DNA of 64,000 nucleotides from Treponemataceae bacterium (GTDB taxonomy: Bacteria > Spirochaetota > Spirochaetia > Treponematales > Rectinemataceae): assembly GCA_963678065.2 (NCBI GenBank), contig CAXXVZ010000004.1, forward strand, positions 352,001 to 416,000, given 5' to 3'. Each line of letters starts with the position of its first letter. Positions within the stretch are counted from its first letter, which is position 1. Positions 28,244-58,660 of the stretch are shown here, in pieces. The position numbers and the translations under genes are program-made. The notes under the pieces are model-generated. The model saw nothing but the letters and a program-made list of their open reading frames with translations, made no database searches and was not told the origin of the DNA.

Positions 28244-28253
28244 GCGCCGCTCC

Positions 28254-28826: not shown

Positions 28827-28867
28827 GCTTTCCTCCATGCAGTGTGCGCGAACTACCGGACAGCCTG

Positions 28868-29821: not shown

Positions 29822-29825
29822 GATC

Positions 29826-31526: not shown

Positions 31527-31554
31527 CTTTGTCTCCTCGCTCTTTTCTTCGGTC

Positions 31555-32592: not shown

Positions 32593-32638
32593 CCCGTTCT
32601 CCTTAGTTTTCGGTCCAGTTTTTTTCAGTCCAGTTTTT

Positions 32639-33661: not shown

Positions 33662-33689
33662 CGTCGCTCTCCTTGCAGTTTATATTATC

Positions 33690-33718
33690 ACTTTATGTTG
33701 TTTAATAGCATTTGTCAA
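33690..33718 (-). promoter_or_regulatory. Sigma70-like promoter of the 33661-24818 operon
   Basis: Minus strand TTGACA, N17, TAAAGT, followed by an AAGGAG RBS. Confidence 0.55.
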
Positions 33719-33920
33719 GCTTTTATTTTCATTATACTATCTCTTTGACGATTCAGTTGCGCAAAACAACAACGCAGGGCAAAGCACGGATTCTGAGCGG
33801 CCGGGACAATACGGACACAACACAGAACCTCATGCTGAAGCCGCTACCGGAACCGCGGATTTCCTTTGCGGTCCCGGCCAATCAGAGAAAGGAATTGTCC
33901 TGTCGCGGGCGACGAAACCT

Positions 33921-37217: not shown

Positions 37218-38731
37218 TTCAGGACCTCCTGACGCGCCCCGACGGCCGCCGAAAGCAGCTCTTCCTTGCTCGCGCCGGAATCGAGCCGCGCGACTATCCT
37301 TCCCCGGTCGATGACGAGGTAGCGGTGACTGACGCTCATGATTTCCTCTATCTCCGAAGAGATGACGAGGATGGAGGCTCCGCCCGAGGCCAGGGTTCCG
37401 ATCATTTCCTGGATTTCGATTTTCGCCCCCACGTCGAGCCCCCGCGTCGGTTCGTCCATGATCAGGATGGGAGGATTCTTCTGCAGCCACCGGCTCAGGA
37501 TGACCTTCTGCTGATTGCCCCCCGAGAGGGTCGCGACGGGCTGCTCCATATCCGATACCTTGATGCCGAGTCGGGCGATGAGCCGCCCTGCCTCGGATTT
37601 TTCTCTTTTCTCGTCGATGAGAGGCCAGAACTTCGAGACAAGGCCGGGAAGACTTGCCAGAGAAATGTTTTTCCTGACCGATGAGCGCAGAAGGAGCCCG
37701 TCATCGCGGCGGTTTTCGGTGATGAGCCCTATCCATTTCTGGGCCGATCTCTGCCTGATGCGCGCGCGGCCCGCGGGCGTGCCGACAGAAATTTCGCCTC
37801 TGTCGATCGAATCGAGCCCGGCAAGAGCCCTGGCGAGCTCCGTCCTGCCGGAACCGAGGAGTCCCCAGAGTCCGACAACCTCACCTTTGTGCAGCTCGAA
37901 GTCTATATTTTCGATCACGCCGGACCTGGTCAGATCCCTGACCTCGAGCGCGATGGCCCCGGATCGCTTTTTTGCCACGCCCGGCGCGCCCCGGAGATCC
38001 GGCTGTGCCCTTCCGAGCATGAGCTGCACGATTTTTTCGTAATTCAGGGCGCCGATGGAATCCCCGCCTGCGACCTCCCCGTTCCTGAGCACCAATGCCC
38101 GATCGCAGAGAGTGAAAACCTCGTCGAGGAAATGCGTGATGTAGATGATGGTGGCTCCGCCCGCCTTGAGCTTTTTTATCACGCCGAAGAGCCTCTCCTT
38201 CTCCAGGCCGGAAAGAGACGATGTCGGCTCGTCGAAGATGACTATCCGGGGGTTCCCGAGGAGGGCCCTCGCGATCTCGACCATCTGGCGGTCGCCTGAG
38301 CCAAGGTTTTTCACCTTGGTTTTCGGAGGAAACGAGCAGCCGAGGGACTTGAGGATTTCCGAGCACCGCGCAGTCGCCGATCTGAAATCGATGAGCCGGG
38401 CGCCTGTTCTCGGAAAGGATGAAATGTACATGTTTTCCGCTATCGTCATGGTGGGCAGAAGGGCCATCTCCTGATGGACGAAGGCGATGCCGCACCGGGC
38501 GGCGTCAAGGGGGCTGTTGATGGCAGCGGGCTTTCCCCCGATCTCGATGCTCCCGGAATCCATGCGAAGGACGCCGCCCAGCACGTTCATGAGCGTGCTC
38601 TTGCCGGCTCCATTCGCTCCTATGAGAGCCAGGACCTCCCCCGGAAAGGCCTCGAGGCTTATGCCGTTCAGAGCCCTGATGCCCGGAAAACTTTTGGTGA
38701 TTCCCGTCAATTTCAGACTGGATGCTGTCAT
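37214..38731 (-). CDS. Sugar ABC transporter ATP-binding protein
   Basis: GANGAGKST, FDEPT, LSGGNQQK, DEPTRGLDVG. Confidence 0.93.
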   Translation of the reverse strand: MTASSLKLTGITKSFPGIRALNGISLEAFPGEVLALIGANGAGKSTLMNVLGGVLRMDSGSIEIGGKPAAINSPLDAARCGIAFVHQEMALLPTMTIAENMYISSFPRTGARLIDFRSATARCSEILKSLGCSFPPKTKVKNLGSGDRQMVEIARALLGNPRIVIFDEPTSSLSGLEKERLFGVIKKLKAGGATIIYITHFLDEVFTLCDRALVLRNGEVAGGDSIGALNYEKIVQLMLGRAQPDLRGAPGVAKKRSGAIALEVRDLTRSGVIENIDFELHKGEVVGLWGLLGSGRTELARALAGLDSIDRGEISVGTPAGRARIRQRSAQKWIGLITENRRDDGLLLRSSVRKNISLASLPGLVSKFWPLIDEKREKSEAGRLIARLGIKVSDMEQPVATLSGGNQQKVILSRWLQKNPPILIMDEPTRGLDVGAKIEIQEMIGTLASGGASILVISSEIEEIMSVSHRYLVIDRGRIVARLDSGASKEELLSAAVGARQEVLK

Positions 38732-38735
38732 GGCT

Positions 38736-39743
38736 TCACTCCTGGCTTCGCTTCGACCGCGAATCGATCGCGACGACGGCGATGATGACAAGACCCTTCA
38801 CGATCAGCGTCGCGTAGTAGGAAAGGTGGGCCATGTTCATGATGTTGCTTATCATCGTGATGATGACGGCGCCGAGTACGGCCCCGGGAAAGAAGCCGGC
38901 CCCGCCGTTGATGCTCACGCCGCCGACGACAGCTGACCCTACGACATTGAGCACGACGCCCTCCTGGCCCATCGTCGAGGAGGCGGAGGCGAGTCTCGCC
39001 GTCACGATTATCGCCGCGAGCCCTGCGAAGAAGCCGGCGAAGACGTAGGCGCCGAACAGGACCAGCCTCTTCGGAATTCCGCTCACCCGCGCCGTCTCGG
39101 CATTGATGCCCACCGCGTAGAGCCAGCGGCCGAATATGCTTTTCCCCGCAAGAAGGCCTACGACGAGGGCCGTGACCGCGAGGGCGAGCACAGGAAAGGG
39201 GATGATCCAGATCCTGGCCATGACGAAGTCCAGAAATCCCTGGTGCAGACCGAGCACACTGACGGAGTTGGTTATCATGACGCAGGCGCCCATGGCGATG
39301 GCCTGAGTCGAAAGCGTCACCACGAAGGGAATCATCCTGAGATACGCGACTGCGAAGCCATTGAGCGCGCCTCCCGCGATGCCGACGCCTACCATCATGA
39401 GGGCTCCGATCACGGGATTGCCGCCCGAGCGCATGTACATGGAGCCCAGGATTCCGCCGAGCGCCATGAGTGCGGGTATCGAGAGGTCCATGCCCCCGGT
39501 GATGAGGACGGCCGTCATGCCGATGGCCATGAAGCCGAGCGCCGAGGACTGCATGAGGATGTTGACGAGATTGTTGACCGTGAAAAAATTCCTGACCGTG
39601 AGGCCGAGAACGGCCGTGATCGCCAGAAAGAGGATGAGCGGCAAGAGCCGGACGAGAGGCCGTACGGCAGCCCCCGGGGCGCCAGCCTTCCGTCCGCCGA
39701 TCCGGAGCTCCGGAACAGGCTTCGCTGCGCTAGTGTGATTCAT
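38736..39743 (-). CDS. Sugar ABC transporter permease
   Basis: TGGMDLS, YAVGIN..ARVSG, AVVGGVSINGG. Confidence 0.9.
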   Translation of the reverse strand: MNHTSAAKPVPELRIGGRKAGAPGAAVRPLVRLLPLILFLAITAVLGLTVRNFFTVNNLVNILMQSSALGFMAIGMTAVLITGGMDLSIPALMALGGILGSMYMRSGGNPVIGALMMVGVGIAGGALNGFAVAYLRMIPFVVTLSTQAIAMGACVMITNSVSVLGLHQGFLDFVMARIWIIPFPVLALAVTALVVGLLAGKSIFGRWLYAVGINAETARVSGIPKRLVLFGAYVFAGFFAGLAAIIVTARLASASSTMGQEGVVLNVVGSAVVGGVSINGGAGFFPGAVLGAVIITMISNIMNMAHLSYYATLIVKGLVIIAVVAIDSRSKRSQE

Positions 39744-39831
39744 TGCGTTCTCCAGATGGGCATGTATCGCGGGAATGGACCGGCGGCCCGAAGGCCGCCG
39801 GTCGCGGAACCGGTGTCCGTGAGGGAGTTTC

Positions 39832-40839
39832 TCAGTCTTTGTACTCGCGGGCCCACATCTTTTCGAGCTTGTCGACATTGGAAGGGGTGGCGACCCGGCC
39901 GGCGACGAGGAAATCCTGACCGTTGAGCTTCTCGCCCGAGGCGAGGCGGACCGCTACCTTGACGAGTTCCACGGCGTGGAAGTAGGCGTCATAGGTTGTC
40001 GCCACGTCGATGTAGCCCTTCTTCATCGCCTCGTAACCCTGAGGATTGACGTCCTGCGTGGCGATATACATGTGCTTCGGATCCCCGATGGGAGCCCAGC
40101 GTCCTGCGTTCTGCAGCGCGGTCTGCACCGCGGAGAAGGCGAAGTCGCTGGCTATGAACATGCAGTTGGCCTCGGGGTGGGCCTGGAGGGCGTTGGCCGT
40201 CCCGGTCATGAACTTCTGGGGGTCCCACTCGGTCGGAACCTGGATCACGGTGCTCCACTGCCCCTTTTCGCTCTCGACCTTGTGCCAGCCGTTGGATCTC
40301 TGGACCGCGTTCATGTCGCGCAGGTCGCCCATGAGCTCGATGGCCTTGCCCTTGATTCCCTTGTCCGCCAGGATCTTGGCGAAGGCCTCCGCCGTGGAGA
40401 TGGCCTGATTGAAGCTGTCGGCGCCGACGTGGGCGTCGGGCTTCACGCCGGAAGACTTCCGGTCGAAGGTGATGAATTTGACCCCGGCCTTGCGCGCCGC
40501 CGTAATGGAAGCTCCGATCGCGGCCGCATCGTGGGGCCTCGCTATGATGATGTCCACCTTCTGGTTGATGAGATCTTCTATATTGGAAGCCTGCTGCGAG
40601 GGATCGCTGTCGGCGACGTTCACGATCCACTTGAACGCGATGCCGTTCTTTTTGCCGTATTCGGCGCTGTAGCTCTTCATGTAGTCTTCCCAGGCCTGGA
40701 TCAGGGCGTGCATCTTCTCGTTCCACGAAATACCGATGGTAATCGTTTTGGGTGTTCCCGGGCTCTGCGCCCAGACGGAAGTCGATGCGCCGAAAACCGC
40801 GAGACACAGCGCGAGACACAGAATCATTTTGCCCTTCAT
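39832..40839 (-). CDS. Sugar ABC transporter substrate-binding protein
   Basis: Signal peptide; class I periplasmic binding fold motifs (QASNIEDLI, ITFDR). Confidence 0.88.
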   Translation of the reverse strand: MKGKMILCLALCLAVFGASTSVWAQSPGTPKTITIGISWNEKMHALIQAWEDYMKSYSAEYGKKNGIAFKWIVNVADSDPSQQASNIEDLINQKVDIIIARPHDAAAIGASITAARKAGVKFITFDRKSSGVKPDAHVGADSFNQAISTAEAFAKILADKGIKGKAIELMGDLRDMNAVQRSNGWHKVESEKGQWSTVIQVPTEWDPQKFMTGTANALQAHPEANCMFIASDFAFSAVQTALQNAGRWAPIGDPKHMYIATQDVNPQGYEAMKKGYIDVATTYDAYFHAVELVKVAVRLASGEKLNGQDFLVAGRVATPSNVDKLEKMWAREYKD

Positions 40840-45781: not shown

Positions 45782-46597
45782 TCAGATGTAGCGTTTGAGG
45801 GGCGAACCCGTGACGAATGCGTAGAGCTCGATGTACTGCTTGATCGTGCTGCGGCCCAGCTTGGCGATCAGCACTTCCTCGATCTGGAAGAATCCGACCT
45901 CGGAGGACATCTCCACCATGATGGATATGGGTTTTTCTCCGCCGGCCTGGATGTGGACATCCTCGATGGAACTCGCGGAATACTTGTGTATGTCGCCTAC
46001 GCGGGGCTCGTTCCCGAGCGAGAGAGGGATTCGCGCCCTGCCCTTCTGTATGTCGCAGCCGTCGGCGACAAGGATGACACCCGCCTCGAGCGAGTGTATG
46101 GCGCGCGTGCCCATGTGGCCCGATATTCCTTCGATCGCGAGGGAGCGGAGAATGAAGCGCCGGCTCGCGTCGTCATGGAAGACGGCGGCGAGAACGCGGT
46201 CGATCACGGGAAGGCCGAGGTAGACAGAGTGGAGCTCGTGGTCCTGGCGCCCGATCGTCATGCCGAGATCGTGAAGGAATGAGGCGAGGATGACGGCGAC
46301 GAGACTGTCGGAAAAGCTGCCGATCTCCTCCTCCTCGAGGCTCGTCTTCACGCCGGCTTTTTTCAAGAGGTTCATCATGAGGATGGCGTTGAGCACCACC
46401 GTGCGCATGTGGACGGGGCCGTGGTCGTTGAAACCGAGGCGTTTGATCGAGACGGTGTTGGCGTAGTCCTGCATGATCTGGACTTCGGGATCGTCCATGA
46501 GGAGCTGCGCGGTCTTGAAGGCCGGATTGTCGCGGCCATACTCGGAAAGGAGCGAGAGGATCTTCCTCTCCAGCACCATTTCCTTGGGGGATTTCAT
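45782..46597 (-). CDS. HD-domain phosphohydrolase
   Basis: FNDHGPVH, FLHDLG, GHM, VADGCD. Confidence 0.85.
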   Translation of the reverse strand: MKSPKEMVLERKILSLLSEYGRDNPAFKTAQLLMDDPEVQIMQDYANTVSIKRLGFNDHGPVHMRTVVLNAILMMNLLKKAGVKTSLEEEEIGSFSDSLVAVILASFLHDLGMTIGRQDHELHSVYLGLPVIDRVLAAVFHDDASRRFILRSLAIEGISGHMGTRAIHSLEAGVILVADGCDIQKGRARIPLSLGNEPRVGDIHKYSASSIEDVHIQAGGEKPISIMVEMSSEVGFFQIEEVLIAKLGRSTIKQYIELYAFVTGSPLKRYI

Positions 46598-46698: not shown

Positions 46699-47961
46699 TC
46701 AAATATCCGGCGCGTTGGCGAGGAGGTAGTCCTCGGCCTCTTTGCACCAGAGCATGTCGTGGGCGGCGACGATGCGCGCGAGCTCGGCGTAGAAGGAACT
46801 GCGCGTGCCGAGGGAAGCGAAATCGGCGAGGGCGACGAGCTCGAGCCTCTTGTGCGTGTAGATGAGCTTCTTGCCTCCGGGAATCTTGTCGAGGTTGATG
46901 GTCGTCGACGCGGCGGAGTTGAGTCCGCCCACGTGGGTGATCATGGAGACCGGATTGAGGGTTCCCGCGGCCATCATCTCCAGGGACTCTATCATGTCGT
47001 CGGTGTTGCCGCCCGAGGTTCCGACGAGGTGGTGGGACTCGTAGTGGACGTTGTAGAAGTTGAAAGCGGCCGAGAACCCCGTGTCGGTGGGGCCGGCGAA
47101 GAAGTTGAGGCAGCCATCCGTCCCGAGAAGCTTGTCGGCCATCTCGATGAGGGGCTTCACGGGGGCGAAGACGAAGACATCGTCGAAGAGCTTGCCGCCG
47201 TTCTGTTTCTGCAGGTAGGCCACGGGGTCGGCGATTTCCTTCGTGTTCACGTAGACCAGTTCGACGCCGTTCTTCGCGGCCTCGGCCACGGTGATGATGC
47301 GCGCGGCGCGCTCCAGGCGTGCAGGATCGATGTCGGTCACGACGACGCGTTTCGCGCGGCGCGGCGCGTGGATGGCGTAGTCGATGGCGCCGAGTCCCAT
47401 GGGACCGACGCTCGCGAGCAGCGCGAGTGATCCGCCCTCCTTGATGCCCATCTCGTGAACGTAGGAGCCACCTTTGGTGTGGTACTGGGCGTGGTAGGCG
47501 CCGACGATGCAGGAAACCGGCTCGGAGAGGGAGCCCATGAAGAAGTTGTCAGCCTTGTACTCGAGGAGGCAGCCGCACTCCATGACCTCGTTCGGGATGA
47601 TGGCGTAGGTCGAGTCGCCGCCCGTGTACTCGTAGGAGTAGCCCGGCGCCCAGAGCGTGCCCTGGTAATTGAGCGCCGGCTGTATGGCGAACGTGGCCCC
47701 GGGCCTGAACTGTCCGGCCCACTTGGATCCGACTTCCTCGATGACGCCGCAGAACTCGTGGCCGATGATGACCGGGTTCTTCGCGAGTTCGTGGCGCACG
47801 CGCTTGTGCTTTTCGCCCTGCATCGCGAGCTTGTGGCTCGACATGCAGATGGAGTCGGAGACGATCCGGACGAGAATTTCGTCGTCCTTGATCGCCGGAA
47901 GCTCGAATTCCTCGAGCCTGAGGTCGTTCACGCCGTGGATGCGTACGGCTTTTGTCTTCAT
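46699..47961 (-). CDS. L-sorbose-1-phosphate reductase-like zinc-binding dehydrogenase (SorE/YggP family)
   Basis: DLRLEEFELP, VSDSICMS, GHEFCG, APGYSYEY, DGCLNFFAGP, NFYNVHY, GTSGG, PGGKKLIY. Confidence 0.85.
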   Translation of the reverse strand: MKTKAVRIHGVNDLRLEEFELPAIKDDEILVRIVSDSICMSSHKLAMQGEKHKRVRHELAKNPVIIGHEFCGVIEEVGSKWAGQFRPGATFAIQPALNYQGTLWAPGYSYEYTGGDSTYAIIPNEVMECGCLLEYKADNFFMGSLSEPVSCIVGAYHAQYHTKGGSYVHEMGIKEGGSLALLASVGPMGLGAIDYAIHAPRRAKRVVVTDIDPARLERAARIITVAEAAKNGVELVYVNTKEIADPVAYLQKQNGGKLFDDVFVFAPVKPLIEMADKLLGTDGCLNFFAGPTDTGFSAAFNFYNVHYESHHLVGTSGGNTDDMIESLEMMAAGTLNPVSMITHVGGLNSAASTTINLDKIPGGKKLIYTHKRLELVALADFASLGTRSSFYAELARIVAAHDMLWCKEAEDYLLANAPDI

Positions 47962-48039
47962 GTGCGTTCTCCTTCAGCCGGCACGATGCCGGCTTTGACC
48001 ATTCGGCCCCCTCCGGGTTTCAGTCCGGGGCCGGTCCGT

Positions 48040-49590
48040 TCAGATGCCGGAAACCCGTCCGCCCCTTCGTGCAACGAGGCCGAGCATAGCTTCCATGTAG
48101 TCCGCGAATCCGTCCAGGCCCTCCATGGGCCGGACTGACTTGTATTCTATATCGAAGTCGGATCCGAAATCCTCGAGGGGGCGTCCGGACAATGCGCTGG
48201 CTGCCGTCATCGCCGCTCCGAAGGATGTCGCCTCGGCGAGGTCGGTGATCCAGGTCGCGTTGCCGGGCAGGGCGGCCGCGAGAATGCCGCAGTAGTCGGG
48301 ATTCTTGCGGAAGCCGCCCTCGGTGAACACGTCGCTGCCGGCTTCGAGTCCCGTGCGGCCGAGAGCGACGAGGGTCTGGACAGCGAGAGAGAGGTTGAGC
48401 ACCGCCCCCGCGGTCTCAGGATCGGAAAAAAAGGCAGGAACCTTCTCCCCGCTCTCCATCGTCGCGAGGGGGAAGTCCGTCCCGCCCTCCACGGCCATGG
48501 CGCTCGAGCCCGGAAATTGTCCCGAGCCAGGGACGATCTCCGGAAGGATGAAGAGCCGTTTCTCCCGGACGATCCTCGCGTAGACGGAGGGATCGGAGCA
48601 TGCGGGCACCGGAGAGGACGTTTTCGCGATGAGATCGGTGTAGGTCCCGTACTCGAATCCGCCGAGGAATATGGCGGTCTTGACGGGCTTCAGGAAGGCC
48701 GATCGGTTGAAGAATACGACCTTGCCCAATTCGTCCGCCTTGAATCCGTACTCGGGGCAGGGGTGCATGAGGACGCACCATGTTCCCGTCGAGTTGAGGA
48801 CGAAATCGCGTCCGCCGCGCGCGACGATGTGCGGGACGAGGGAGGCGTTGGAATCGTGGATGCCCATGGTCACGATAGTGGAAGCGTCGAGGCCGAGACG
48901 GGCGGCCAGCTCGGGTTTGAGCCTTCCGAGGATGTCCTGCGATTTCCTCAAGGGGGAAGGCATCTTGTCCGCGAGACCGAGGACCCGCGCGACGGAGGAG
49001 TACTCTTCTTTTTGCCAGTCCCAGAGGTAGGTGTGACAGCCGACGTAGGTGCCCTCGGCTCCGGCCGCGCCTGAGAGCCTGTATCCCCAGTACTGGGGAT
49101 AGGAGAGCACGAGCTCCGTCCGGGCGAATTGTTCCGGGAAGCGCTCCTTCGCGAATAAAAGCCCCTTCGCGGGATTGATGAGGGCGGAGAGGACAGGCGT
49201 GCCGGTTACCGCCTGGAGCGCCTCGGGCTTTCCGGTCAGGTCGTAGAAACGCTTCTGGAACTCCGGTCCGGGCTCGTAGGTGTAATAGACGCAGGGCAGG
49301 CAGGGCTTCCCGTCCGCGCCGAGGCAGACCATGGTGGCGCCGTGCGTCGAAACCGCGATGGCGCGGATCGGATAGCGCTCTGCGAAATCGGCGAGCATTT
49401 CGAGGAACCAGTCCTCCATGCCCGCGAGATCGTGGGTTTCGATATCCCCCAGCATGACCGGCTCGAAGGTCCTCGACACGGAGGCGAGACAGTGCGGCTT
49501 GACGCCTTGTCCGGCTGAGTCCGGCCATTCGTAGATGGCGACCTTCTTGTTGGTCATGCCTATGTCGATGACGGCGATGATGTGGCTCAT
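48040..49590 (-). CDS. FGGY-like carbohydrate kinase
   Basis: VIDIGMTNKK, STHGAT, GCHTYLWD, GIHDSNASL, STGTW, EGGF. Confidence 0.82.
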   Translation of the reverse strand: MSHIIAVIDIGMTNKKVAIYEWPDSAGQGVKPHCLASVSRTFEPVMLGDIETHDLAGMEDWFLEMLADFAERYPIRAIAVSTHGATMVCLGADGKPCLPCVYYTYEPGPEFQKRFYDLTGKPEALQAVTGTPVLSALINPAKGLLFAKERFPEQFARTELVLSYPQYWGYRLSGAAGAEGTYVGCHTYLWDWQKEEYSSVARVLGLADKMPSPLRKSQDILGRLKPELAARLGLDASTIVTMGIHDSNASLVPHIVARGGRDFVLNSTGTWCVLMHPCPEYGFKADELGKVVFFNRSAFLKPVKTAIFLGGFEYGTYTDLIAKTSSPVPACSDPSVYARIVREKRLFILPEIVPGSGQFPGSSAMAVEGGTDFPLATMESGEKVPAFFSDPETAGAVLNLSLAVQTLVALGRTGLEAGSDVFTEGGFRKNPDYCGILAAALPGNATWITDLAEATSFGAAMTAASALSGRPLEDFGSDFDIEYKSVRPMEGLDGFADYMEAMLGLVARRGGRVSGI

Positions 49591-49606
49591 GTATCGGATA
49601 CTCCTG

Positions 49607-50869
49607 TCAGTTCAGCATGACCTGTCCGCCGGTGACCGGCAAGGCCTGTCCGGTTTCATATTCCTGATCTACAAGGTAATAAATCGCGCGCATGACGTCA
49701 GGTCCCGTGCAGCCTCTTCCCATGGGAACTTTGGCCTCGTAGAAGGCCTTGACGTCGGCGATGGTTTTCGCGCCGGGGACCTTGCCCGCCTCGAGGTACT
49801 GGACGAAGAGTCCTCGGACGGGATCGGACCAGAGGGGGCCGTCGAAGAAGTTGCCGGGGCAGATCGCGTTCACTTTGATTCCGAATTCGACGAGTTCGAG
49901 GGCGAAGCTCTGCACGAGCCCGATCGAGCCGAACTTGGAGCCGGCGTAGGAGGCGTTCTTGTTGGATCCCTGCAGTCCCGATTTGGAATTGATCTGGATG
50001 ATATCGGTCGGCCTCTTGCCGGAGGTCCTGCTCTGGGCGCGCATGGTGAGCCCCGCGTGCTTCGTGACGAGCATGAACGCGGTGTAGTTGACGTCCGTGA
50101 CGAACTTGAAGGCGCCGAGTTCCTGCTCGAGAACGGAGGATGCCTTGAGGACGCCGGCGTTGCTGACGACGAGGTCTATCCCTCCCGCCTCGACCGCGAT
50201 GGTCCCGAACATGGCCTTCACCGAGGCTTCGTCCGCCACGTTCACGGCGATGGCCGCGGCGACTTCCCTGCCCTGTTCCGCATTGAGGGTTCCGGCGAGG
50301 CGACGTGCACCCTCGAAGTTCATGTCTGCGATGAAAACGTAGGCTCCGGAGGACGCGAGGCCCCGCACGATCTCCTCGCCGAAGCCCTGGGCGCCGCCCG
50401 TCACACAGGCGATCCTGCCCTCGACGACGCGGGAGCGGCCAGAGGCAGAAGCCGCATTGCCCGACCGGAGCCTTGAGTCGGCACAGGAGTCCCAGAAAGC
50501 CACATCGCCTCTCGTGGCGCGCGCGCGGGCGGCTTCCATGGAAAGCCCTGCGTAGAAGGAGATGCTCCCCTCCTCAGTCCCGAGGCTCAAGCCTCCGGGA
50601 AGATGTTCAGGTCCCGCGCCCATCTTCGCGAAAGCGGAGACGAGTTCGGAGGCGGCTTCCTTCCCGGAAAGATTTGTCAGCGAGATGAGGGCCGGACCCT
50701 CCGCGATCGGGTCGTCCGCGATCGGACCCTCCGCGACCTGGCCCTGCCCGTCCCGCCCCCGAGCGGCCGGAGCCTCGCCAGGGACTACGAAGACGGGCAT
50801 CCCTGCGGCCCCGAGATAGAGGCCGCGCACGAGGGGCGCATATGTGGCGAGAGTCTGTGTATCAGTCAT
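49607..50869 (-). CDS. SDR oxidoreductase, sorbitol-6-phosphate 2-dehydrogenase (SrlD)-like, with an N-terminal extension of about 145 aa
   Basis: VTGGAQGFG, SNAGV, QINSKSG, YAGSKFG, KVPMGRGC, TGQALPVTGGQVM. Confidence 0.85.
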   Translation of the reverse strand: MTDTQTLATYAPLVRGLYLGAAGMPVFVVPGEAPAARGRDGQGQVAEGPIADDPIAEGPALISLTNLSGKEAASELVSAFAKMGAGPEHLPGGLSLGTEEGSISFYAGLSMEAARARATRGDVAFWDSCADSRLRSGNAASASGRSRVVEGRIACVTGGAQGFGEEIVRGLASSGAYVFIADMNFEGARRLAGTLNAEQGREVAAAIAVNVADEASVKAMFGTIAVEAGGIDLVVSNAGVLKASSVLEQELGAFKFVTDVNYTAFMLVTKHAGLTMRAQSRTSGKRPTDIIQINSKSGLQGSNKNASYAGSKFGSIGLVQSFALELVEFGIKVNAICPGNFFDGPLWSDPVRGLFVQYLEAGKVPGAKTIADVKAFYEAKVPMGRGCTGPDVMRAIYYLVDQEYETGQALPVTGGQVMLN

Positions 50870-52293
50870 CTGAGCCTTCCTTCCGCGACGAGGGCGGCGA
50901 TATCCGCAACCACAGCTGGTTGCCGGGGGTCGAGCATGCGGCCGGCCACCGCGTAGATGGCGAGGCGATCGGCGAGACTTCTGTCCGCGAGCGGATTGTC
51001 GGCCCTGAAGAGGCCGAGCCGCGGATCGGCGGAGGCAAGTTTTTCATGGGCCACCAGCGCCCAGGTCGTATCGACGAGGTGGGCGAACTCAGGCCGCCGA
51101 AGCTCGGGGCAGTTGAAGGTCTGCCTCGGCTGGTTGATGTCGACGCCGGAAATTTCCATGAAGTCGTGCTTCGCGCAGAGCGCCTTCACACGCCCGAGCT
51201 GGGCGGAGGTGTTGCGCGGCGGCATGTAGGTCACGGCGAGATATCCCAGCTTCCCGAGCTCGACGAAGAGCTCGTCGAGATAATCGTCCTCGAACTTCTC
51301 GGCCTTCTTGTCGCCCGTGGGAGATTCGCCGACATCGCCCAAGTAGGCGTAGGCGGGAATCGCTCCGATGGAGCGGGCGAAGGCGACGGCCTCGCGGACG
51401 GGGATGCATTCGCTCTCGTCGGGCTGGATGAAAATTCTGTCCAGGAAACCTGTCTTGAGCACGTTGATGAGGTCGTAGACGGCGATGGCGTTGGCCGGGT
51501 CGGAGAGGAGGGCGGCGACCTTGGATGTCACCTTTATCCCGAAATCCTTTTCAAGCCCGGCGACGAGGCCCCTGCCATGTCCGGCGGTATCGGTGGCGGT
51601 CCCCGGAGCGTCATAGTGCGCGATCATGCGCCCGGCCACCGCCCGGCAGAGGTGGCGCTCGGTAATGCCACCGCCCTCGGAGGCCATCGAGAGGGGGAGG
51701 ATGTCCTTTTCCATGGAGATGCCGGGGATGCCGGCGGCTTCGAGAAGATGGCTCGCAGCCGCCGCCATAGCGACAGTCCGCATGTTGCGCCTCGCGCGTA
51801 TGGGCGCAAGGAAGGCGTCGAGCCTGTCGATGTTGTACGCGGGCACGCCCTGGATCGTCATGTAGACGATGCCGGCCGAGTCCGGATTGTTGATCTTGCG
51901 CGAGGCGAAGGGGCTCATCCCTCCATCGGCCGCCTCGCGGAAACTGACCCTGAGTTCGCAGCCGGTGACCCCGCCGAGGCCCAGGACGGCGCAGGCTTCC
52001 GTCATCTCGCGGGCGGCGGAGATCGAATCGTGGTCGACGGAGCCCGCCACTTCCAGCCCGGCCTCGAAGGCGCGCAGGGCGGCCATCGAGGGCGTGTAAG
52101 GGCTGAAGCTGTAGATCGTGTGGATGTGGTTGTTGACTTCCGCGCCCGGCGCCGCGGCTGCGGGCGCGGGAACCCTCAGGGCCAGGCCGGTGTCGACGTA
52201 GGATCGAAGGGCGGCGCAGCGATCCCGGGGACTGAGCCCGGAATCATTGATTCTGAGACGCAGAGCCTCGGCCGTCATGTCGCCCTCACTCAC
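50866..52293 (-). CDS. PHP-domain metal-dependent phosphoesterase
   Basis: NNHIHTIYS, VDHDS, GCEL, YAYLGD, ISGVD. Confidence 0.8.
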   Translation of the reverse strand: MSEGDMTAEALRLRINDSGLSPRDRCAALRSYVDTGLALRVPAPAAAAPGAEVNNHIHTIYSFSPYTPSMAALRAFEAGLEVAGSVDHDSISAAREMTEACAVLGLGGVTGCELRVSFREAADGGMSPFASRKINNPDSAGIVYMTIQGVPAYNIDRLDAFLAPIRARRNMRTVAMAAAASHLLEAAGIPGISMEKDILPLSMASEGGGITERHLCRAVAGRMIAHYDAPGTATDTAGHGRGLVAGLEKDFGIKVTSKVAALLSDPANAIAVYDLINVLKTGFLDRIFIQPDESECIPVREAVAFARSIGAIPAYAYLGDVGESPTGDKKAEKFEDDYLDELFVELGKLGYLAVTYMPPRNTSAQLGRVKALCAKHDFMEISGVDINQPRQTFNCPELRRPEFAHLVDTTWALVAHEKLASADPRLGLFRADNPLADRSLADRLAIYAVAGRMLDPRQPAVVADIAALVAEGRLR

Positions 52294-52305
52294 GGGTAGC
52301 TCCTT

Positions 52306-54762
52306 TTAGAGACCAGTCCTCGCCCTGCGGGCGAGATCCATGGCTGTCTGGACTGTGGTCGGCACGTGGCCGGCGAGGGGCATGATTCTCTCATGGATCG
52401 TGTCGACGATCCAGTCCTTCTGCGGGAAGTAGAGCTGCTCCATCTCCGCGGCCGGCGTGATCCAGTTGCGGCTGCCGACCACGGCGACGGGTGCGTCGAG
52501 GTAATCGAAGGCGAACTGTGTCACGTTGGATGCCACGGTGTGCATGAAGCTGCCGCGCTCGCAGGAGTCGCTCGCGAGCACGAGCTTGCCGGTTTTCTTC
52601 ACGGACTCGAGGAGGACGGAGTAGTCGAGGGGCGCGATGAAGCGCAGGTCGACGACCTCGACCGAGAGACCGTACTTGTCCTCGAGGAGCTTCGCGGTGT
52701 CCATGGCGCGGTAGAGGGTGGCACCCAAGGTCGCGATGGTGAGGTCTTTGCCGGTCTTGCGCACGGCGCTCTGTCCCTCGGGTATCTCGTAGTAGCCCGC
52801 GGGCACGCCGCTCTTCTCGAATTGCTCGCCCACATCGTAGAGGAGCTGGCTCTCGAAGAAGATGACGGGGTCGGTGCCGCGCAGGGCGAGGTTCAGCATT
52901 CCCTTGGCGTCGTAGGGCGTGGCGGGGAAGTAGGCCTTGAGGCCCGGAACATGGGCGACGAAGGCCGACCAGTCCTGGCTGTGCTGGGCGCCGTACTTGT
53001 TGCCGACGGAGACGCGCACCGTCAGCGGCATCTTGAGGAGACCGGCCGACATGGACTGCCACTTGGAGGCCTGGTTGAATATCTCGTCCCCGGCGCGGCC
53101 CATGAAGTCGCAGTACATGAGTTCGACGACGGCGCGTCCGCCCGAGAGCGCGTAGCCGACGCCCGAGCCGACGATGGCTCCCTCGGAGATCGGGCTGTTG
53201 AAGAGCCTGTGGTAGGGAAGCGCCTCGGTGAGGCCGCGGTAGACGGCGAAGGCGCCGCCCCAGTCGCGGTTTTCCTCGCCCCAGGCGGCCATGGTCGGGT
53301 CGATCGCGAAACGGTGGATCATCGCCTCGAAGAGGGCGTCGCGGTACTGGAAGAGCTTGTTCTTGGAGACGGGCTTGCCCTCGGCGTCGAAGGCGTAGCG
53401 GACCTTTCCGGCAAGGGCCTTGACTCTGGCATTCTCGGCGGGGTCGCCGAGAAGCTCGGGCGCGCGCTCGTCGAGCTTTTCGGCTTTCGTGTTGGAGAAC
53501 ATGACGGATTCGATGAAGGCGCCGTTGACGCGCGGGCACTCGGCCTCGTTCGTGGCGAGCCTGACGACCGAGTCGAGTTTCTCGAAAATGGCTTTCCGCG
53601 CGGTGTCGAGTTCGTCGCGGGTCGCGACCTTGTTCGCGATGAGGTAATCGGCGTAGGACGTGATGGAATCGGTCGACTGCCAGAGCTCGACCTCTTCCTT
53701 GCTGCGGTAGCTCGAGGCGTCGGAGGGCGAGTGACCCGACACGCGGTAGGTGATGGTGTCCAGGAGCACAGGGCCGCGTCCCTCGAGGAGAATCTTCTTC
53801 TTGCGCCCGACGGCTTCGGCGACGGCGAGGGGATTGTAGCCGTCCACGCGCTCGGAGTGCATGTTCTCGGGGTTGACGCCGGCGCCGACGCGGGCGAGGA
53901 CCTGGTAGCCCATGGTCTCGCCATTGGTCTGGCCGCCCATGCCGTAGAAGTTGTTGAAGAAGTTGAAAAGGATGGGCGGAGCGCCGCCGACATCCTTGTC
54001 CCAGAGTTTGCGGTACTGATCCATGGCCGCCAGGCTCATGGCTTCCCAGACGGGGCCGCAGCCCATGGACGCGTCGCCGATGTTGGACACGACGATGCCG
54101 GGCTTGCGGTTGATCCTCTTGAAGAGGGCGGAGCCCGTCGCGATGTCGGCCGAGCCGCCGACTATGGCGTTGTTCGGCATCGATCCGAAGGGCGTGAAGA
54201 AGGCGTGCATGGAGCCGCCAAGGCCGCGGTTGAAGCCGGCCTTGCGCGCGAAGATTTCGGCGAGGGTGCCGAAAAGGATGAAGTTCTCCGCGCGGTCGGC
54301 CAGGTTTTTCGCGGGGATCTTGTCGACGAGTTTCAGGGTTTCGCCGTCGAGGAATTTCTCCATGACGGAGATGAGCTCGTTCTCCGGCAACAGGCGCGAG
54401 GCCGAGAGGCATTTGGCGAGGATTTCGCCGTGGCTGCGGTGCGAGCCGAAGATGAAGTCATCGGGCAGAAGGGCGGCGCACTGTCCGACCGAGGCCGCTT
54501 CCTGGCCGATGGAGAGGTGGGCGGGGCCCTTGTGGTTGTACTCGATGCCGTTCCAGGCGCCCATGGTCTTGAAGGTGTTGAGCATGGTCTCGAACTCGCG
54601 GATGTAGACCATGTCGAGCCAGATTTGCTTCAATTTTCCGGCGCCGAAAGTTTTCAGCTCCTTCTTGAAATCGCTCTTGTAGCTGTTGACTGGAATGTCG
54701 GCGATTTTGAGGGTCGAGGGTTTCCGCACATCGGCGGGGTCGACAAGTATCGATTTTGGCAT
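52306..54762 (-). CDS. Fused alpha/beta E1 component of a 2-oxoacid/acetoin dehydrogenase-type complex (TPP-dependent)
   Basis: [27 protein letters not shown] motif, TYRVSGHS; beta part [22 protein letters not shown]. Confidence 0.92.
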
Positions 54763-54826
54763 TGCTATCCTCCGTTATACTGTTGTGTGCGTGGGCCCTT
54801 CTACCAGGGAAGTCCCGCGCTCTTTA

Positions 54827-56197
54827 TCAATGGGCCATCGCCCAGGCCGCTTCGCGTATCGCTTCGCAGACCGAGGGGTGGGGAAAAATCATCTGGCGCA
54901 GGTCGGCGACGCTCATCTGTTGCTCGATGACCGGAGCGGCGCCCCAGATCATCTCGCTCGCGTAGGATCCGACGACGTGGACACCGAGCACCCGCTCCGT
55001 GCCGGCCTCGACGATCAGCTTCACGCCTCCCGGAGCCGCGAAGCCGTTCTCGGCCGCGAAGCGTCCGGAGACGCGCAGCGGGAGCGAGGAGGTCTTCACC
55101 GCGATGCCGCGGGCGGCCGCTTCCTGCTCGGTGATGCCGATGCCGGCCGCCTCCGGTATTCCGTAGACGGCCCAGGGAACGGCGTCGTAGCGCATGCGGT
55201 CAGCGCCCTTCGCGGCACCGCCGCCTGAGAGTATGTCGGTCACGGCGACTTCGGCCATGCGGTAGGCCGAGTGCGCGAGGAGGCTCTTGCCGGTAACGTC
55301 GCCTATCGCCCAGACACCGGGCAGATTCGTGCGCATGCGCTCGTCGACGATGATTCCTTTCGGCGTCATGTCGAGTCCGGCCTCCTGACCGCCCCAGCCC
55401 GAGAGATTGGGCCTGCGGCCGACGGCCATGAGGACGAGGTCGGCGGGGCTTTTCGCCTCCTGGCCATCCTTGGTCCGGTAGGCGACGGTCCCGCCTTCGA
55501 TGCGCTCGACCCTGCAGCCGAGCTTGAAGGAGACGGCTTTCATCGCACGGCGCAGTATGGGCGCGTGCTCCTTGTCCATGAAGGGCACGATCTCGTCCAT
55601 CATCTCGACGACCTCGACCTTGGAGCCGAGGGCGGAGAAGAGGCTCGCGAACTCGACGCCGATCACGCCGCCGCCGATCACGCAGAGCGAGGCCGGCACC
55701 TGGCCGATGGCGAGAAGTCCCGTGGAGTCGACGACGGCCGGATTGTCCTTCGCGCCGGGAATCGGCGGCATGACGGGCGAGGAACCCGTCGCGAGGATGA
55801 CGGCGGCCGCCCCGTGGACGACGCCGTTTACTTCGACCTTTCCCGACCCGACGAGCCGGCCGGTCGCCTGCACCACCTCGACGCCGAGCTTCTTCTCGGT
55901 GAGGGCGATGGCGCCGCGCAGCTTCTCGACCACTTCGGTCTTCCACGCCTGCATCGCGCTCCAGTCGAAGCTGACGCCCTCGGCTTTGACACCGAACCTG
56001 GCGCCTTCCTTTGCGTGCAGGTAGTACTTGGCGGAGTTGAGGAGAGTCTTGGTGGGAACGCATCCCACGTTGAGGCAGGTGCCCCCGAGGTACTCCTTCT
56101 CGACGAGAAGGACCTTTTTGCCTTTTTCCCCGAGGCGCTCGGCGGCGACATACCCGCCCGGCCCGCCTCCGAGGATTATGACATCATACTTGTTCAT
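54827..56197 (-). CDS. lpdA: Dihydrolipoyl dehydrogenase (E3)
   Basis: GGGPGGY, GGTCLNVGCVPTK, GGGVIGVE, LLAH, HPSVCE. Confidence 0.93.
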   Translation of the reverse strand: MNKYDVIILGGGPGGYVAAERLGEKGKKVLLVEKEYLGGTCLNVGCVPTKTLLNSAKYYLHAKEGARFGVKAEGVSFDWSAMQAWKTEVVEKLRGAIALTEKKLGVEVVQATGRLVGSGKVEVNGVVHGAAAVILATGSSPVMPPIPGAKDNPAVVDSTGLLAIGQVPASLCVIGGGVIGVEFASLFSALGSKVEVVEMMDEIVPFMDKEHAPILRRAMKAVSFKLGCRVERIEGGTVAYRTKDGQEAKSPADLVLMAVGRRPNLSGWGGQEAGLDMTPKGIIVDERMRTNLPGVWAIGDVTGKSLLAHSAYRMAEVAVTDILSGGGAAKGADRMRYDAVPWAVYGIPEAAGIGITEQEAAARGIAVKTSSLPLRVSGRFAAENGFAAPGGVKLIVEAGTERVLGVHVVGSYASEMIWGAAPVIEQQMSVADLRQMIFPHPSVCEAIREAAWAMAH

Positions 56198-56213
56198 TTT
56201 TTCCACATCTCCT

Positions 56214-57659
56214 TCACACGAGCATCACGATGTCTATGTTCGCGATGTAGTCCCCGAGGTCCTTGAGGAAGCGGGCGGCGTCCGCCCCGTCGACGACGCG
56301 GTGGTCGACCGTGAGCGAGAATCCGATCCGCATCTCCGCGCCCACGGTCCCGTCTTTGGAGATGGTCGGCCTGGGCACGATGGCGTCCACGCCGAGGATT
56401 CCCGTCTCGGGCTCGTTGAGGATGGGCGTGAAGCTCTCGATGCCGAAAGCCCCCAGGTTGGTGACTGTGAAAGTCGAGCCGGAGAGCAGGTCGGGGTTGG
56501 GAGAACCGGCCACGCAGTCGCCGGCGAGCTTTTTGGAACGCTCGGAGAAGGCGCGAAGCGAGAGGGATTCGGCGCCGCGGATGACCGGGACCATGAGGCC
56601 GCGCGGCGTATCCACGGCGAGGCCGAGGTGGACACGCCCGAAGCTGCGGACCGCGCCGTCCACGACGTGGGCGTTGATCCGGGGGTACTTCGCGAGGACC
56701 CTCGTGGCGGCGAAGGCAACGAGGTCGCCGATCGTCACGCCGGAAAGGCCCAGGGCGGGGTCGGAGTTCTTGAGGCGGTTGCGCATGGAAAGAAGGCGCT
56801 CCGCCGGAGCGCTCGCGTTGAAAGTGAGCTGGGCGCTGGCCTGGAGCGAATGCATCATGCGGTCAGCGATGATTTTCCTGATGCTCTTGATCGGAGTCTC
56901 CGCGTAGGGGCCGGGGAAATCCGCGTCCCCGGCACCGCCGGTGACGCCTGCGACCGCAAAGGGAGCCGTGGTCGCGGCTGTGACAGCAGAGACCGCGGCA
57001 GGAGCGGCGGCAGCGGCGGCAGCGGCGAAGTCAGCGACGCCCGCCCGTCCACCGAAGGCCGTTCCGGCTCCGGGAACAGCGGCACCCTTCGTCGCGAGGA
57101 CGCGCGCCGCGGCCGTGAGCTCAGGCCTCTTCCCGAGAGCCGCCTTGATGTCGCGCTCGATGATGCGTCCGCCGGGACCGGAACCCGGGATGCCGGCGAG
57201 GGGAAGTCCCTCGCCGGCCGCGAGGTTGCGGGCCCTGGGGCTCGCAAAACCGACCGCGGCCGCCCCGGCTTCCGCCTGAGCGGCGGGCGGGTTTGTCCCC
57301 GCGGATGCGGGAGCGGAGCCTTCGGCAGCTGGAGCGGACATCTCGAGCCGGGCTTGCGCCTCCGACGGCGCGCCCGCAGCGGGAGCGCCGTCTTTGCCCA
57401 CAAGGGATGCCCAATCCTCTCCGCTCTTCCCGATCACCGCGATCGGCTGCAGAACGGGAACATCATCCCCCTCGGGATGAAGAATCTTGAGGACGACGCC
57501 ATCCGCTCCGGCAGGGACCTCGAAGCTCGCCTTGTCGGTCTCGACCTCGCAAATCGGCTGCGAGGCGGCGACAGCCTGCCCCTCAGCGACCTTCCAGCCC
57601 ACGATCACGCAGGATTCGACCGTATTCCCCTGCCTGGGCATAATCACAACATGTGCCAC
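56214..57659 (-). CDS. Dihydrolipoamide acyltransferase (E2), one lipoyl domain
   Basis: EVETDKA lipoyl-Lys, ASPRAR..GSGPGGRI E3-binding, DHRVVDG catalytic. Confidence 0.92.
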   Translation of the reverse strand: MAHVVIMPRQGNTVESCVIVGWKVAEGQAVAASQPICEVETDKASFEVPAGADGVVLKILHPEGDDVPVLQPIAVIGKSGEDWASLVGKDGAPAAGAPSEAQARLEMSAPAAEGSAPASAGTNPPAAQAEAGAAAVGFASPRARNLAAGEGLPLAGIPGSGPGGRIIERDIKAALGKRPELTAAARVLATKGAAVPGAGTAFGGRAGVADFAAAAAAAAPAAVSAVTAATTAPFAVAGVTGGAGDADFPGPYAETPIKSIRKIIADRMMHSLQASAQLTFNASAPAERLLSMRNRLKNSDPALGLSGVTIGDLVAFAATRVLAKYPRINAHVVDGAVRSFGRVHLGLAVDTPRGLMVPVIRGAESLSLRAFSERSKKLAGDCVAGSPNPDLLSGSTFTVTNLGAFGIESFTPILNEPETGILGVDAIVPRPTISKDGTVGAEMRIGFSLTVDHRVVDGADAARFLKDLGDYIANIDIVMLV

Positions 57660-57721
57660 CTTCTACCTCCACACGTGATCCCGTTCCGCGTCCTGCGCTC
57701 TTGCGCGGGACATGGGGTACT

Positions 57722-58477
57722 TCAGAACCTTTTTATCCGTATCGACGCCTGCTCGAGGGAGCGGACCACATCGGCCTGCAGCCCCGAGTCGGTAATGATT
57801 CCATTCACCGCCGAAAGCGGCAACACACCGACGAAGCCCGACTTTCCGTACTTGGACGAATCCGCCACGAGCCACGTCTCTCTGGCGCGAATGCGCATCG
57901 CCTTCACTATCTCTGCCCCTTCCACGAGTTGGGTCGTCATCCCATTCTCCAGGCTGAATCCGTCCGTTCCGACAAAAGCCAACGCGACATTGAAATCCGC
58001 TATCGTCCGGAGCGCGATCGGGCCGACCATGGACTCCGTCGCCCGCCTGAACTCGCCGCCAGTCATGGTTATGGAGAGCGCCGGATTGAGCCGCGCGTAG
58101 GAGTAGACGAGGGTGGAATTGGTGACGATGTGGATGTCCCTCTTGCCGAGAAGGTATTTCGCGATGAGGGCGGTCGTCGTCCCGGCCTCGATCATGATGG
58201 CGTCGCCGTCGCGCACGAGTTCCGCCGCGGCACGGGCTATCCTGTTCTTCTCCTCCACCATGCTGCGCTGCCTGTCGAGAATGGAGGGGTGGAAGGCGGG
58301 CGAGGCCCCCCCCCGCGAACGGGTGATGAACCCTCGATCCTCAAGGGACTTGAAATCGGAGCGCACCGTGACCTCGGACACACCCAGCTCGGCAGAGAGT
58401 GCGGCCACCGAGAGCGATCCGCGATCTGCCAGAAGCTCGAGTATCCTGCGATCCCTCTCGCCAAGCTCTTCGGTCAT
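57722..58477 (-). CDS. DeoR/GlpR family transcriptional regulator
   Basis: VSEVTVRSDF, RSRGGA, EAGTTT, VTNS, ADSSK. Confidence 0.92.
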   Translation of the reverse strand: MTEELGERDRRILELLADRGSLSVAALSAELGVSEVTVRSDFKSLEDRGFITRSRGGASPAFHPSILDRQRSMVEEKNRIARAAAELVRDGDAIMIEAGTTTALIAKYLLGKRDIHIVTNSTLVYSYARLNPALSITMTGGEFRRATESMVGPIALRTIADFNVALAFVGTDGFSLENGMTTQLVEGAEIVKAMRIRARETWLVADSSKYGKSGFVGVLPLSAVNGIITDSGLQADVVRSLEQASIRIKRF

Positions 58478-58479
58478 CT

Positions 58480-58527
58480 TCGATAACCTTTCGAAATACT
58501 TTCGAACATGCTTTGAATTTACATCGA
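58480..58527. promoter_or_regulatory. Phased array of T(C/T)GA cores at exact 11-bp spacing (candidate DeoR operator)
   Basis: TCGA at 58480, 58491 and 58502, TTGA at 58513, TCGA at 58524. Confidence 0.6.
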
Positions 58528-58571
58528 AACTCGCATTTGCGCAAGAGCTCGGTAGGCAAATTTCTACGGTA

Positions 58572-58660
58572 AATGAACGAACCCCGGAGCAGAGCTCCGA
58601 GGTATCGTTCGTTCTGTAAGGAATGGATTGTATGCGGGTATGGACCCGCATGCGAATCAA
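58572..58660. repeat. REP/PATE-like element, copy B (89 bp, inverted, internally deleted)
   Basis: Reverse complement matches 19244-19382 except for a 49-bp deletion, one substitution and a 1-bp deletion. Confidence 0.85.

Follow-up and report, generated by a model that had tools for sequence, protein, structure and literature searches.

A lipoamide-dependent complex in a spirochaetal operon is tied to L-fucose and L-rhamnose genes and may cleave a deoxyketose phosphate to acetyl-CoA

What does a complete thiamine- and lipoamide-dependent dehydrogenase complex do in an operon of sugar-phosphate genes? We addressed this question for an operon on contig CAXXVZ010000004.1 of a Treponemataceae bacterium (Spirochaetota, Rectinemataceae; assembly GCA_963678065.2, 5.27 Mb), within a window of 64,000 nucleotides (contig positions 352,001 to 416,000; G000:C4:352001-416000 in our collection). 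Eight open reading frames (ORFs) on the minus strand, from 58477 to 46699, encode DeoR, E2, E3, a fused E1, a PHP-like protein, a short-chain dehydrogenase/reductase (SDR), an FGGY kinase and a SorE-like dehydrogenase (Table 1), with spacings of 62, 7, 64, 12, −4, 16 and 78 bases. An earlier note on this DNA, which had described eight closely spaced, co-oriented genes, was thus correct in both span and order. As it had also stated, no phosphotransferase system (PTS) or aldolase gene was found inside 46699..58477, with the qualification that a class II aldolase-fold gene tied to the operon system sits elsewhere in the genome, adjoining rhaA.

We are highly confident that this gene set, hereafter the module, is tied to fucose and rhamnose genes, and that the tie is real and conserved. 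Beyond this, the gene content makes it on balance probable that the operon is a DeoR-controlled module for L-fucose and L-rhamnose, in which a keto shift followed by oxidative cleavage to acetyl-CoA would replace the aldolase and lactaldehyde step.

The first issue is whether E1 is an ordinary pyruvate dehydrogenase (PDH). In quick trees of its alpha half (33 rows) and beta half (20 rows), which have long branches and few references, E1 forms a separate clade with SH-aLRT support of 100, outside all annotated PDH, acetoin and branched-chain groups sampled. The references, none experimentally proven, were eight alpha/beta pairs and one other fused E1; seven pairs were named by annotation or gene context, and the eighth is the second E1 of the same genome. 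Identity to these references does not exceed 30% (alpha) or 39% (beta). None of the family cut-offs was reached (TIGR03182, 174 of 394 bits; TIGR03181, 105 of 411; NF006667, 240 of 321), and the E2 scores fall below every NCBIfam E2 cut-off. The genome also holds a 1446-aa PFOR-family frame and lipoate ligase-family genes. Given its separate clade, its scores below the PDH cut-offs and the PFOR-family gene in the same genome, the suggestion that E1 is not a housekeeping pyruvate dehydrogenase stands. That it is nevertheless a housekeeping pyruvate or acetoin dehydrogenase, placed among sugar genes by chance, appears very improbable. In favour of this reading, all catalytic motifs are standard (G229-D230-A231...N270-N271, His344, Glu527, His594), roughly half of the long loci described below have DeoR-E2-E3-E1 separated from the sugar genes, and two of the 61 E1 bearers show neither 6-deoxyhexose isomerase; against it, beside the divergence and the large PFOR-family frame, E1 presence follows fucI and rhaA. 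Arg499, Arg556 and Lys589, conserved across the E1 family and absent from the references, may bind a phosphate group. The second, split E1 alpha/beta pair of the genome (L110 5567-14882, G000:C2) lies among SDRs, a GntR-like regulator and a transaldolase-like gene, in a stretch where no E2 or E3 was recognised.

The E1 family comprises at least 598 loci in the genome collection and 601 in metagenomes, from Spirochaetota, Actinomycetota, Chloroflexota, Verrucomicrobiota, Lentisphaerota, Myxococcota and other phyla, and the closest relatives among the matches listed are spirochaetal. A phylum-wide sample of 200 genomes contained eight other close bearers, too few for a phylum-wide count. In Anaeromyxobacter-type loci (L050 22-12460 and L053), E1 comes after genes for a glycyl-radical enzyme and a shikimate-dehydrogenase-like protein. 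Two sugar-linked E1 complexes outside the clade were also observed (the L139 1309-9743 / L140 1-5689 pair), one in Priestia, divergent from a glucitol-type PTS, and one in Arthrobacter, between a class II aldolase and an FGGY kinase.

With which sugar does the complex travel? We scored co-occurrence in 171 genomes of the spirochaete order that are at least 85% complete and are related by descent, so that P values overstate significance. E1 is present in 61 of them; among these 61, PHP-like genes occur in 55 and SorE-like genes in 59 (at the identity threshold of at least 68% that we chose). RhaA or FucI occurs in 59 of the 61 E1-bearing genomes versus 24 of the 110 without E1, and seven of these 24 hold other module genes, so E1 may be missing from their assemblies. 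The module is inherited together with both 6-deoxyhexose isomerases, the corresponding mutarotases and a rhamnose-binding protein. The sugar connection proposed in the earlier note therefore holds, and isomerase co-occurrence refines it to L-fucose and L-rhamnose. Salvage of 5-deoxyribose or methylthioribose was also considered and dropped, as no such genes were among the recurrent neighbours examined and fucose/rhamnose genes were found instead.

The canonical enzymes show the reverse pattern. RhaD-family genes occur in 8 of the 171 genomes, none of which carries E1 or any module gene, and FucO above its cut-off occurs in four, none with E1 and one (G320) with PHP-like and SorE-like genes. 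Neighbourhoods of fucI, several with short flanks, were available for 34 of 51 E1 bearers and all 15 non-bearers: a class II aldolase lies near fucI in 0 of 34 versus 3 of 15, and the same counts apply to a RhaB-type kinase. Aldolase absence was judged from these neighbourhoods and five single genomes, since the genome-wide PF00596 count mixes FucA-, AraD- and MtnB-type proteins. In G150 (99% complete), the run lipoate ligase-SorE-FGGY-SDR-PHP-E1-E3-E2-DeoR is divergent from fucU, an ABC transporter, a LacI regulator and fucI, and PF00596 has zero matches; in G208 (one contig, 100% complete), the sole aldolase-type gene is AraD, adjoining araA. Both genomes thus keep FucI, FucU and the module without a candidate fuculose-phosphate aldolase. 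The sole aldolase-type gene of G242 is of the type that adjoins rhaA in the studied genome, termed P0001 below.

Physical linkage points to the same sugars. In G288, the module, a lipoate ligase, a kinase and rhaA form one run; in G260 and G324, P0001, PHP, SDR and SorE do so. These three genomes and G265 have module genes in the same operon or locus as rhaA or P0001-type genes. In the studied genome, rhaA, fucI and fucU lie on the operon's contig. PdxA, which adjoins fucI there, does not recur in 160 E1 loci. Among the best 80 genome loci, many of them short, E2 is present in 65, E3 in 54, DeoR in 46, SDR in 34, the PHP-like gene in 32, SorE-like in 26 (four weak) and FGGY in 16. When only long loci are considered (at least 5 kb upstream and 7 kb downstream of E1), at least one of the four sugar genes is found in 17 of 35 genome and 14 of 18 metagenome loci, and all four in 8 and 7, respectively. 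The neighbourhood conservation that the earlier note proposed to test is therefore borne out genome-wide, by the PHP-like and SorE-like counts, and only in part as physical linkage.

The three enzymes at the 3' end of the operon indicate what chemistry might precede E1. For the SDR, the sorbitol-6-phosphate dehydrogenase model NF009050 is the best of 199, at 213 bits (below the cut-off of 307) against 138 for the RhaW-type model; the nearest solved relative is the sorbitol-6-phosphate dehydrogenase 5o3z (E 1e-44), and the alignment contains the SrlD-type active-site stretch INSKSG...Y...K and the C-terminal motif. The N-terminal extension of the SDR could be the remnant of a fused class II aldolase-fold (P0001-type) domain, to which it has a weak resemblance (P 0.005, probability 7%). 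The SorE-like dehydrogenase shares, over its full length, 48% identity with an annotated SorE and 52% with YggP, and matches no curated model. The FGGY kinase misses the cut-offs of both TIGR02627 (21 of 528 bits) and TIGR02628 (32 of 471); its relatives adjoin fucI or rhaA in G232, G260, G324, G205 and G248, among which G205 has a FucA-like aldolase and no module.

SorE and SorD are known to convert L-sorbose 1-phosphate to D-fructose 6-phosphate by reduction at C2 and oxidation at C5. In the pathway that we propose, FucI or RhaA, encoded outside the operon, would form L-fuculose or L-rhamnulose, and the FGGY kinase would yield the 6-deoxyketose 1-phosphate. The SorE-like enzyme would then reduce C2 and the SrlD-like enzyme oxidise C5, giving a 1-deoxy-ketohexose 6-phosphate, a methyl ketol like acetoin. 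E1 would cut the C2-C3 bond and transfer the acetyl unit oxidatively to lipoamide, from which E2 would form acetyl-CoA and E3 NADH, leaving a tetrose 4-phosphate. L-fuculose 1-phosphate and 6-deoxy-L-sorbose 1-phosphate differ only at C3, and rhamnulose 1-phosphate and fuculose 1-phosphate only at C4. To end at D-erythrose 4-phosphate the pathway would need one inversion, that of fuculose C3, at a point before the shift, after it or once cleavage has taken place, and rhamnose would enter through P0001 as a 4-epimerase. The earlier note had left the two-carbon unit as acetyl or glycolyl; given the fucose/rhamnose link, an acetyl unit from the methyl end is favoured.

Glycolyl transfer from an ordinary ketose or polyol would be the corresponding alternative: L-sorbose would be taken to fructose 6-phosphate, or D-arabinose via D-ribulose 1-phosphate to xylulose 5-phosphate, with E1 forming glycolyl-CoA and an aldose phosphate. 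FucI isomerises D-arabinose too. The nearest named relatives of both dehydrogenases are sorbose/sorbitol enzymes, and srlD and sorE bear the label 'Sorbose?' in a published Caldicellulosiruptor locus listing (PMC8579813). We nonetheless regard this alternative as improbable: the partners in co-inheritance are two different 6-deoxyhexose isomerases, mutarotases and a rhamnose-binding protein, and fructose 6-phosphate and xylulose 5-phosphate reach central metabolism without E1.

The gene P0001 (373 aa, stand-alone) precedes rhaA at G000:C4:244336, outside the window. P0001-type genes occur in 57 of the 171 genomes, 56 of them with RhaA, and in 48 of the 52 genomes with E1 and RhaA; in two of the remaining four, a shorter relative directly follows rhaA. 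They are absent from all seven fucose-only E1 genomes and never co-occur with RhaD. Because its presence follows RhaA and it is missing from the fucose-only bearers, P0001 would serve a rhamnose-specific step. P0001 is 33-37% identical to the domain fused to the module SDR in L042, L077 and L078, where the SDR is SrlD-like, and such fusions are also found in L194 and L223. By distribution and fusions, we assign P0001 to the module system. It carries the class II aldolase Glu and three Zn-binding His (PSVE, HTHP, NHG); as class II epimerases share this motif, it leaves the reaction undecided. Epimerisation at C4, of the AraD type, is established for the class II aldolase fold. The score against the RhaEW-type model TIGR02632 is 105 of 568 bits, and no RhaW domain is fused to P0001. 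Whether P0001 is a 4-epimerase converting rhamnulose 1-phosphate to fuculose 1-phosphate, rather than a RhaE-type aldolase, seems to us about evenly balanced.

If P0001 or another protein is an aldolase, the complex might act at the lactaldehyde stage. The aldolase would then give dihydroxyacetone phosphate (DHAP) and L-lactaldehyde, E1/E2/E3 would oxidise lactaldehyde or a C3 ketol derived from it to an acyl-CoA, and the SorE-like and SrlD-like enzymes would be small-molecule oxidoreductases or belong to a side branch. Such a role has been published: according to Rodionov 2021 (PMC8579813), Athe_0702-4 form a novel acetoin-dehydrogenase-like complex in the Caldicellulosiruptor rhamnose locus, which the authors propose handles lactaldehyde, and the C. 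bescii locus listing includes srlD, sorE, lipoate genes, E2, E3, E1, DeoR and rhaA. We equate this E1 with the module E1 family by gene content and order, not by sequence. A rhamnose link is thus already in print for Caldicellulosiruptor, with a different proposed role. The intact aldolase motifs of P0001, the P0001-SDR fusions that mirror RhaEW (a proven aldolase/lactaldehyde dehydrogenase according to PMC3870299) and the mutual exclusion of P0001 and RhaD also speak for the lactaldehyde stage, and with FucO missing from E1 bearers another lactaldehyde sink would be needed. We consider this explanation unlikely, since G150 and G208 keep FucI, FucU and the module without a candidate aldolase, the SDR is nearer to sorbitol-6-phosphate dehydrogenase than to RhaW, and the SorE-like gene, present in nearly all E1 genomes, would have no role.

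Several observations weigh against the keto-shift pathway that we favour. In PMC4187192 (Bielen 2013), Csac_0865-0876 are upregulated on rhamnose, other genes of the cluster being without a known role, and C. saccharolyticus converts rhamnose to 1,2-propanediol, acetate, H2 and CO2 at 1:1:1:1, so an aldolase route fits in that organism; the Caldicellulosiruptor cluster also contains a predicted fucA and rhaD1 (PMC8579813). In the accessible portions of PMC3561251 and PMC4510573, Csac_0872-0874 are named only. P0001 may be a genuine aldolase, given its full aldolase motif and its likeness to the RhaE domain. G279, G332 and G335 have RhaA and P0001 and no module gene was found in them; this is compatible with an aldolase, and also with an epimerase that supplies a FucA-like enzyme of the kind encoded next to rhaA in G335. 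Another sugar cluster of the studied genome holds a pair of FucA-like and RhaB-like genes, each below its cut-off. The PHP, SDR, SorE or FGGY genes lie within 10 kb of E1 in only 17 of 35 long genome loci, and the co-occurrence counts overstate independence because the genomes are kin. Breadth of substrate in FucI, noted above, counts on the same side, as does a rhizobial E1 subfamily (52% identity) without SorE, SrlD or PHP neighbours.

Two of these loci merit description. The cluster with the FucA-like aldolase and RhaB-like kinase (L108 5524-14668, G000:C3) also encodes two class II fructose-bisphosphate-type aldolases, a PfkB kinase and dehydrogenases, and could supply a parallel aldolase route. 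The rhizobial loci (L111 13830-20649, L112, L113) carry a stand-alone lipoyl domain, an alpha/beta hydrolase, a sugar kinase and sugar regulators, and in one case RbsD/FucU; judged by these neighbours, the subfamily is a second sugar-linked use of the same E1 type.

The PHP-like protein could provide the remaining inversion. Its structure model, discarded when built without an alignment (pLDDT 36), reached pLDDT 92.9 with 140 aligned relatives and has the PHP barrel fold, with the TrpH-type PHP protein 3o0f as the best match (Z 25.5, rmsd 2.7, 275 aligned residues) and agreement from Foldseek. His56, His58, His88, Glu113 and Asp385 are invariant in the family. By alignment, the motif-I Asp is replaced with Phe63, the motif-IV His with Tyr317 and the last His with Asn387, changes fixed in at least 139 of the 140 relatives; a further His is probably replaced with Tyr144, a position placed by strand order only. 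The full set of nine His/Asp/Glu ligands of trinuclear PHP phosphoesterases is thus not present, and by the ligand-to-metal assignment of PHP enzymes, one complete metal site of three is left, which makes a hydrolytic phosphatase role doubtful. The earlier note had called this protein a PHP phosphoesterase; the fold is confirmed and the activity is doubtful. The reduced metal site makes an isomerase or epimerase plausible. Provided that the rest of the pathway holds, a role as the epimerase for the C3 inversion is possible, although we lean slightly against it. One relative, in G238 (C1:2747710-2748981), is interrupted by one TGA stop, and a 428-aa frame was called at the same place.

Taken to its full extent, the proposal would amount to a third way of degrading L-fucose and L-rhamnose, widespread among anaerobes from several phyla, with a P0001-type 4-epimerase, a single-metal PHP-fold epimerase, a keto shift to 1-deoxy-D-fructose 6-phosphate and lipoamide-dependent cleavage to acetyl-CoA, erythrose 4-phosphate and NADH, forming neither lactaldehyde nor propanediol. 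In this complete form it is rather doubtful; it would entail a new reaction for the PHP fold and the first case of oxidative sugar-phosphate cleavage by a lipoamide-dependent complex. The pathway is probably new, with a variant of acetoin-dehydrogenase-type chemistry; our literature search, with subscription journals mostly outside its coverage, returned no biochemistry of the module E1 family and no keto-shift route. Mucus, plant pectin and bacterial walls contain fucose and rhamnose as major sugars, and fermentation of these sugars is normally interpreted as proceeding to lactaldehyde and then propanediol or propionate. If the pathway is real, the 61 E1 bearers among the 171 genomes, and members of other phyla, would retain all six carbons, in acetyl-CoA and an intermediate of the pentose phosphate pathway; genes that now carry pyruvate or branched-chain dehydrogenase annotations would be misassigned, and a new thiamine/lipoamide reaction on sugar phosphates, possibly with two new epimerases, would be added. 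The model also offers a testable answer on the role of the Caldicellulosiruptor rhamnose-cluster genes.

Table 1. Genes of the operon and putative control elements (positions in the window)
Feature	Position	Strand	Basis or remarks
DeoR-family repressor, 251 aa	57722..58477	-	PF00455 (E 1e-48) and PF08220
E2 dihydrolipoamide acyltransferase, 481 aa	56214..57659	-	Lipoyl, E3-binding and catalytic domains; lipoyl Lys43, catalytic His453
E3 dihydrolipoyl dehydrogenase, 459 aa	54827..56206	-	TIGR01350, 444 bits vs cut-off 409; CxxxxC and His443
Fused E1 alpha-beta, thiamine-diphosphate enzyme, 818 aa	52306..54762	-	Own clade; catalytic motifs kept
PHP-fold protein with reduced metal site, candidate epimerase/isomerase, 475 aa	50866..52293	-	Structure model and ligand changes; no Pfam match
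SrlD-like SDR, domain at residues ~150-420	49607..50869	-	N-terminal extension of ~145 aa; nearest solved structure 5o3z
FGGY-family kinase, candidate fuculokinase/rhamnulokinase, 516 aa	48040..49590	-	PF21546 and PF00370; role from gene context
SorE/YggP-like Zn-dependent candidate ketose-1-phosphate reductase, 420 aa	46699..47961	-	Cys39, His68, Glu69 and Glu147 present
Putative sigma-70 promoter (TTGCGC, 17 bases, TAAATT)	58516..58544	-	Read by eye; inferred
Putative DeoR operator (direct repeats of WTCGAA, 11-base period)	58479..58517	-	Motif enrichment

In 74 related upstream regions, 79 copies of WTCGAW were counted versus 9.8 in shuffles, and 24 of the 74 hold two or more copies versus 0.5, most commonly spaced by 11 or 22 bases; the regions come from related loci and are not independent. 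The WTCGAA repeats upstream of DeoR are thus likely to be the operator. A TTGC hexamer stands at a comparable position in many of the related regions; a consensus promoter scan found nothing above chance and did not report the putative promoter. In three runs from a single study, metatranscriptome contigs of closely related strains span pieces of the operon, which is not proof of transcription. Between DeoR and the next gene, a 68-base hairpin-containing repeat (58573-58640) was noticed; the intergenic region has 36 blastn matches genome-wide, many near-identical, and a DNA run shows read-depth spikes at the repeat, which is probably a REP-like or MITE-like element.

On the 3' side lie a 271-aa gene without a family match and two HAD hydrolases, which are not conserved: among 80 loci, HAD recurs in 4 and the 271-aa gene is absent throughout. 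The 271-aa gene (45782-46597), directly after the SorE-like gene, matches no Pfam or NCBIfam model and has HD-like motifs by eye; a gene of equal length and similar start also follows SorE in G208. Elsewhere in the window, a separate sugar cluster (25450-40839) encodes an ABC transporter, a FucI-like isomerase (476 aa, far below the FucI cut-off), an AP-endonuclease-2-type epimerase, Gfo/Idh/MocA and Zn dehydrogenases, an FGGY kinase, a cupin GPI, a 2-hydroxyacid dehydrogenase, a metallo-beta-lactamase fold protein and DeoR. At 6511-15666, a 3051-aa protein with GH94/glucoamylase domains has the size and domain set of cyclic beta-1,2-glucan synthases.

How, then, does the module compare with known systems? 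Acetoin dehydrogenase (AcoA/AcoB/AcoC/AcoL) is likewise a thiamine-diphosphate and lipoamide complex, shares its catalytic motifs with the module E1 and, as proposed for the module, cleaves a methyl ketol to acetyl-CoA and an aldehyde. The module E1, however, is fused, lies outside the clade of the Acinetobacter aco-operon E1 (a reference assigned by annotation and context) and is 28%/37% identical to it, and the module differs in its DeoR control, its sugar-phosphate-enzyme neighbours and the sugar phosphate proposed as substrate. The PHP-like protein shares the fold of TrpH/YciV-type phosphoesterases (BAD_1165, Cv1693, RNase AM; Z 25.5 and 23.3) and keeps their HxH, DHD, Glu and terminal Asp, but differs at Phe63, Tyr317, Asn387 and probably Tyr144 and is ~190 residues longer. 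As in the L-sorbose pathway with SorE and SorD/SrlD, a reductase/dehydrogenase pair is proposed to shift the keto group between the ends of a hexose phosphate; here, entry would be through a kinase instead of a PTS, the SDR scores below the SrlD cut-off, and the 1-deoxy sugar product would be cleaved, not sent to glycolysis. Isomerases and mutarotases are the same as in the canonical FucI/FucK/FucA/FucO and RhaA/RhaB/RhaD pathways, whereas RhaD and FucO were found in 0 of the 61 E1 bearers. RhaEW, like the fusions in some module genomes, joins a class II aldolase-fold domain to an SDR, which in the module genomes is SrlD-like and not RhaW-like. A further counterpart is the Caldicellulosiruptor cluster Athe_0695-0706 / Csac_0865-0876, which has srlD, sorE, E2, E3, a single E1 gene, DeoR and rhaA as here, and differs in its predicted fucA and rhaD1, its lipoate synthesis genes and an organism that makes 1,2-propanediol.

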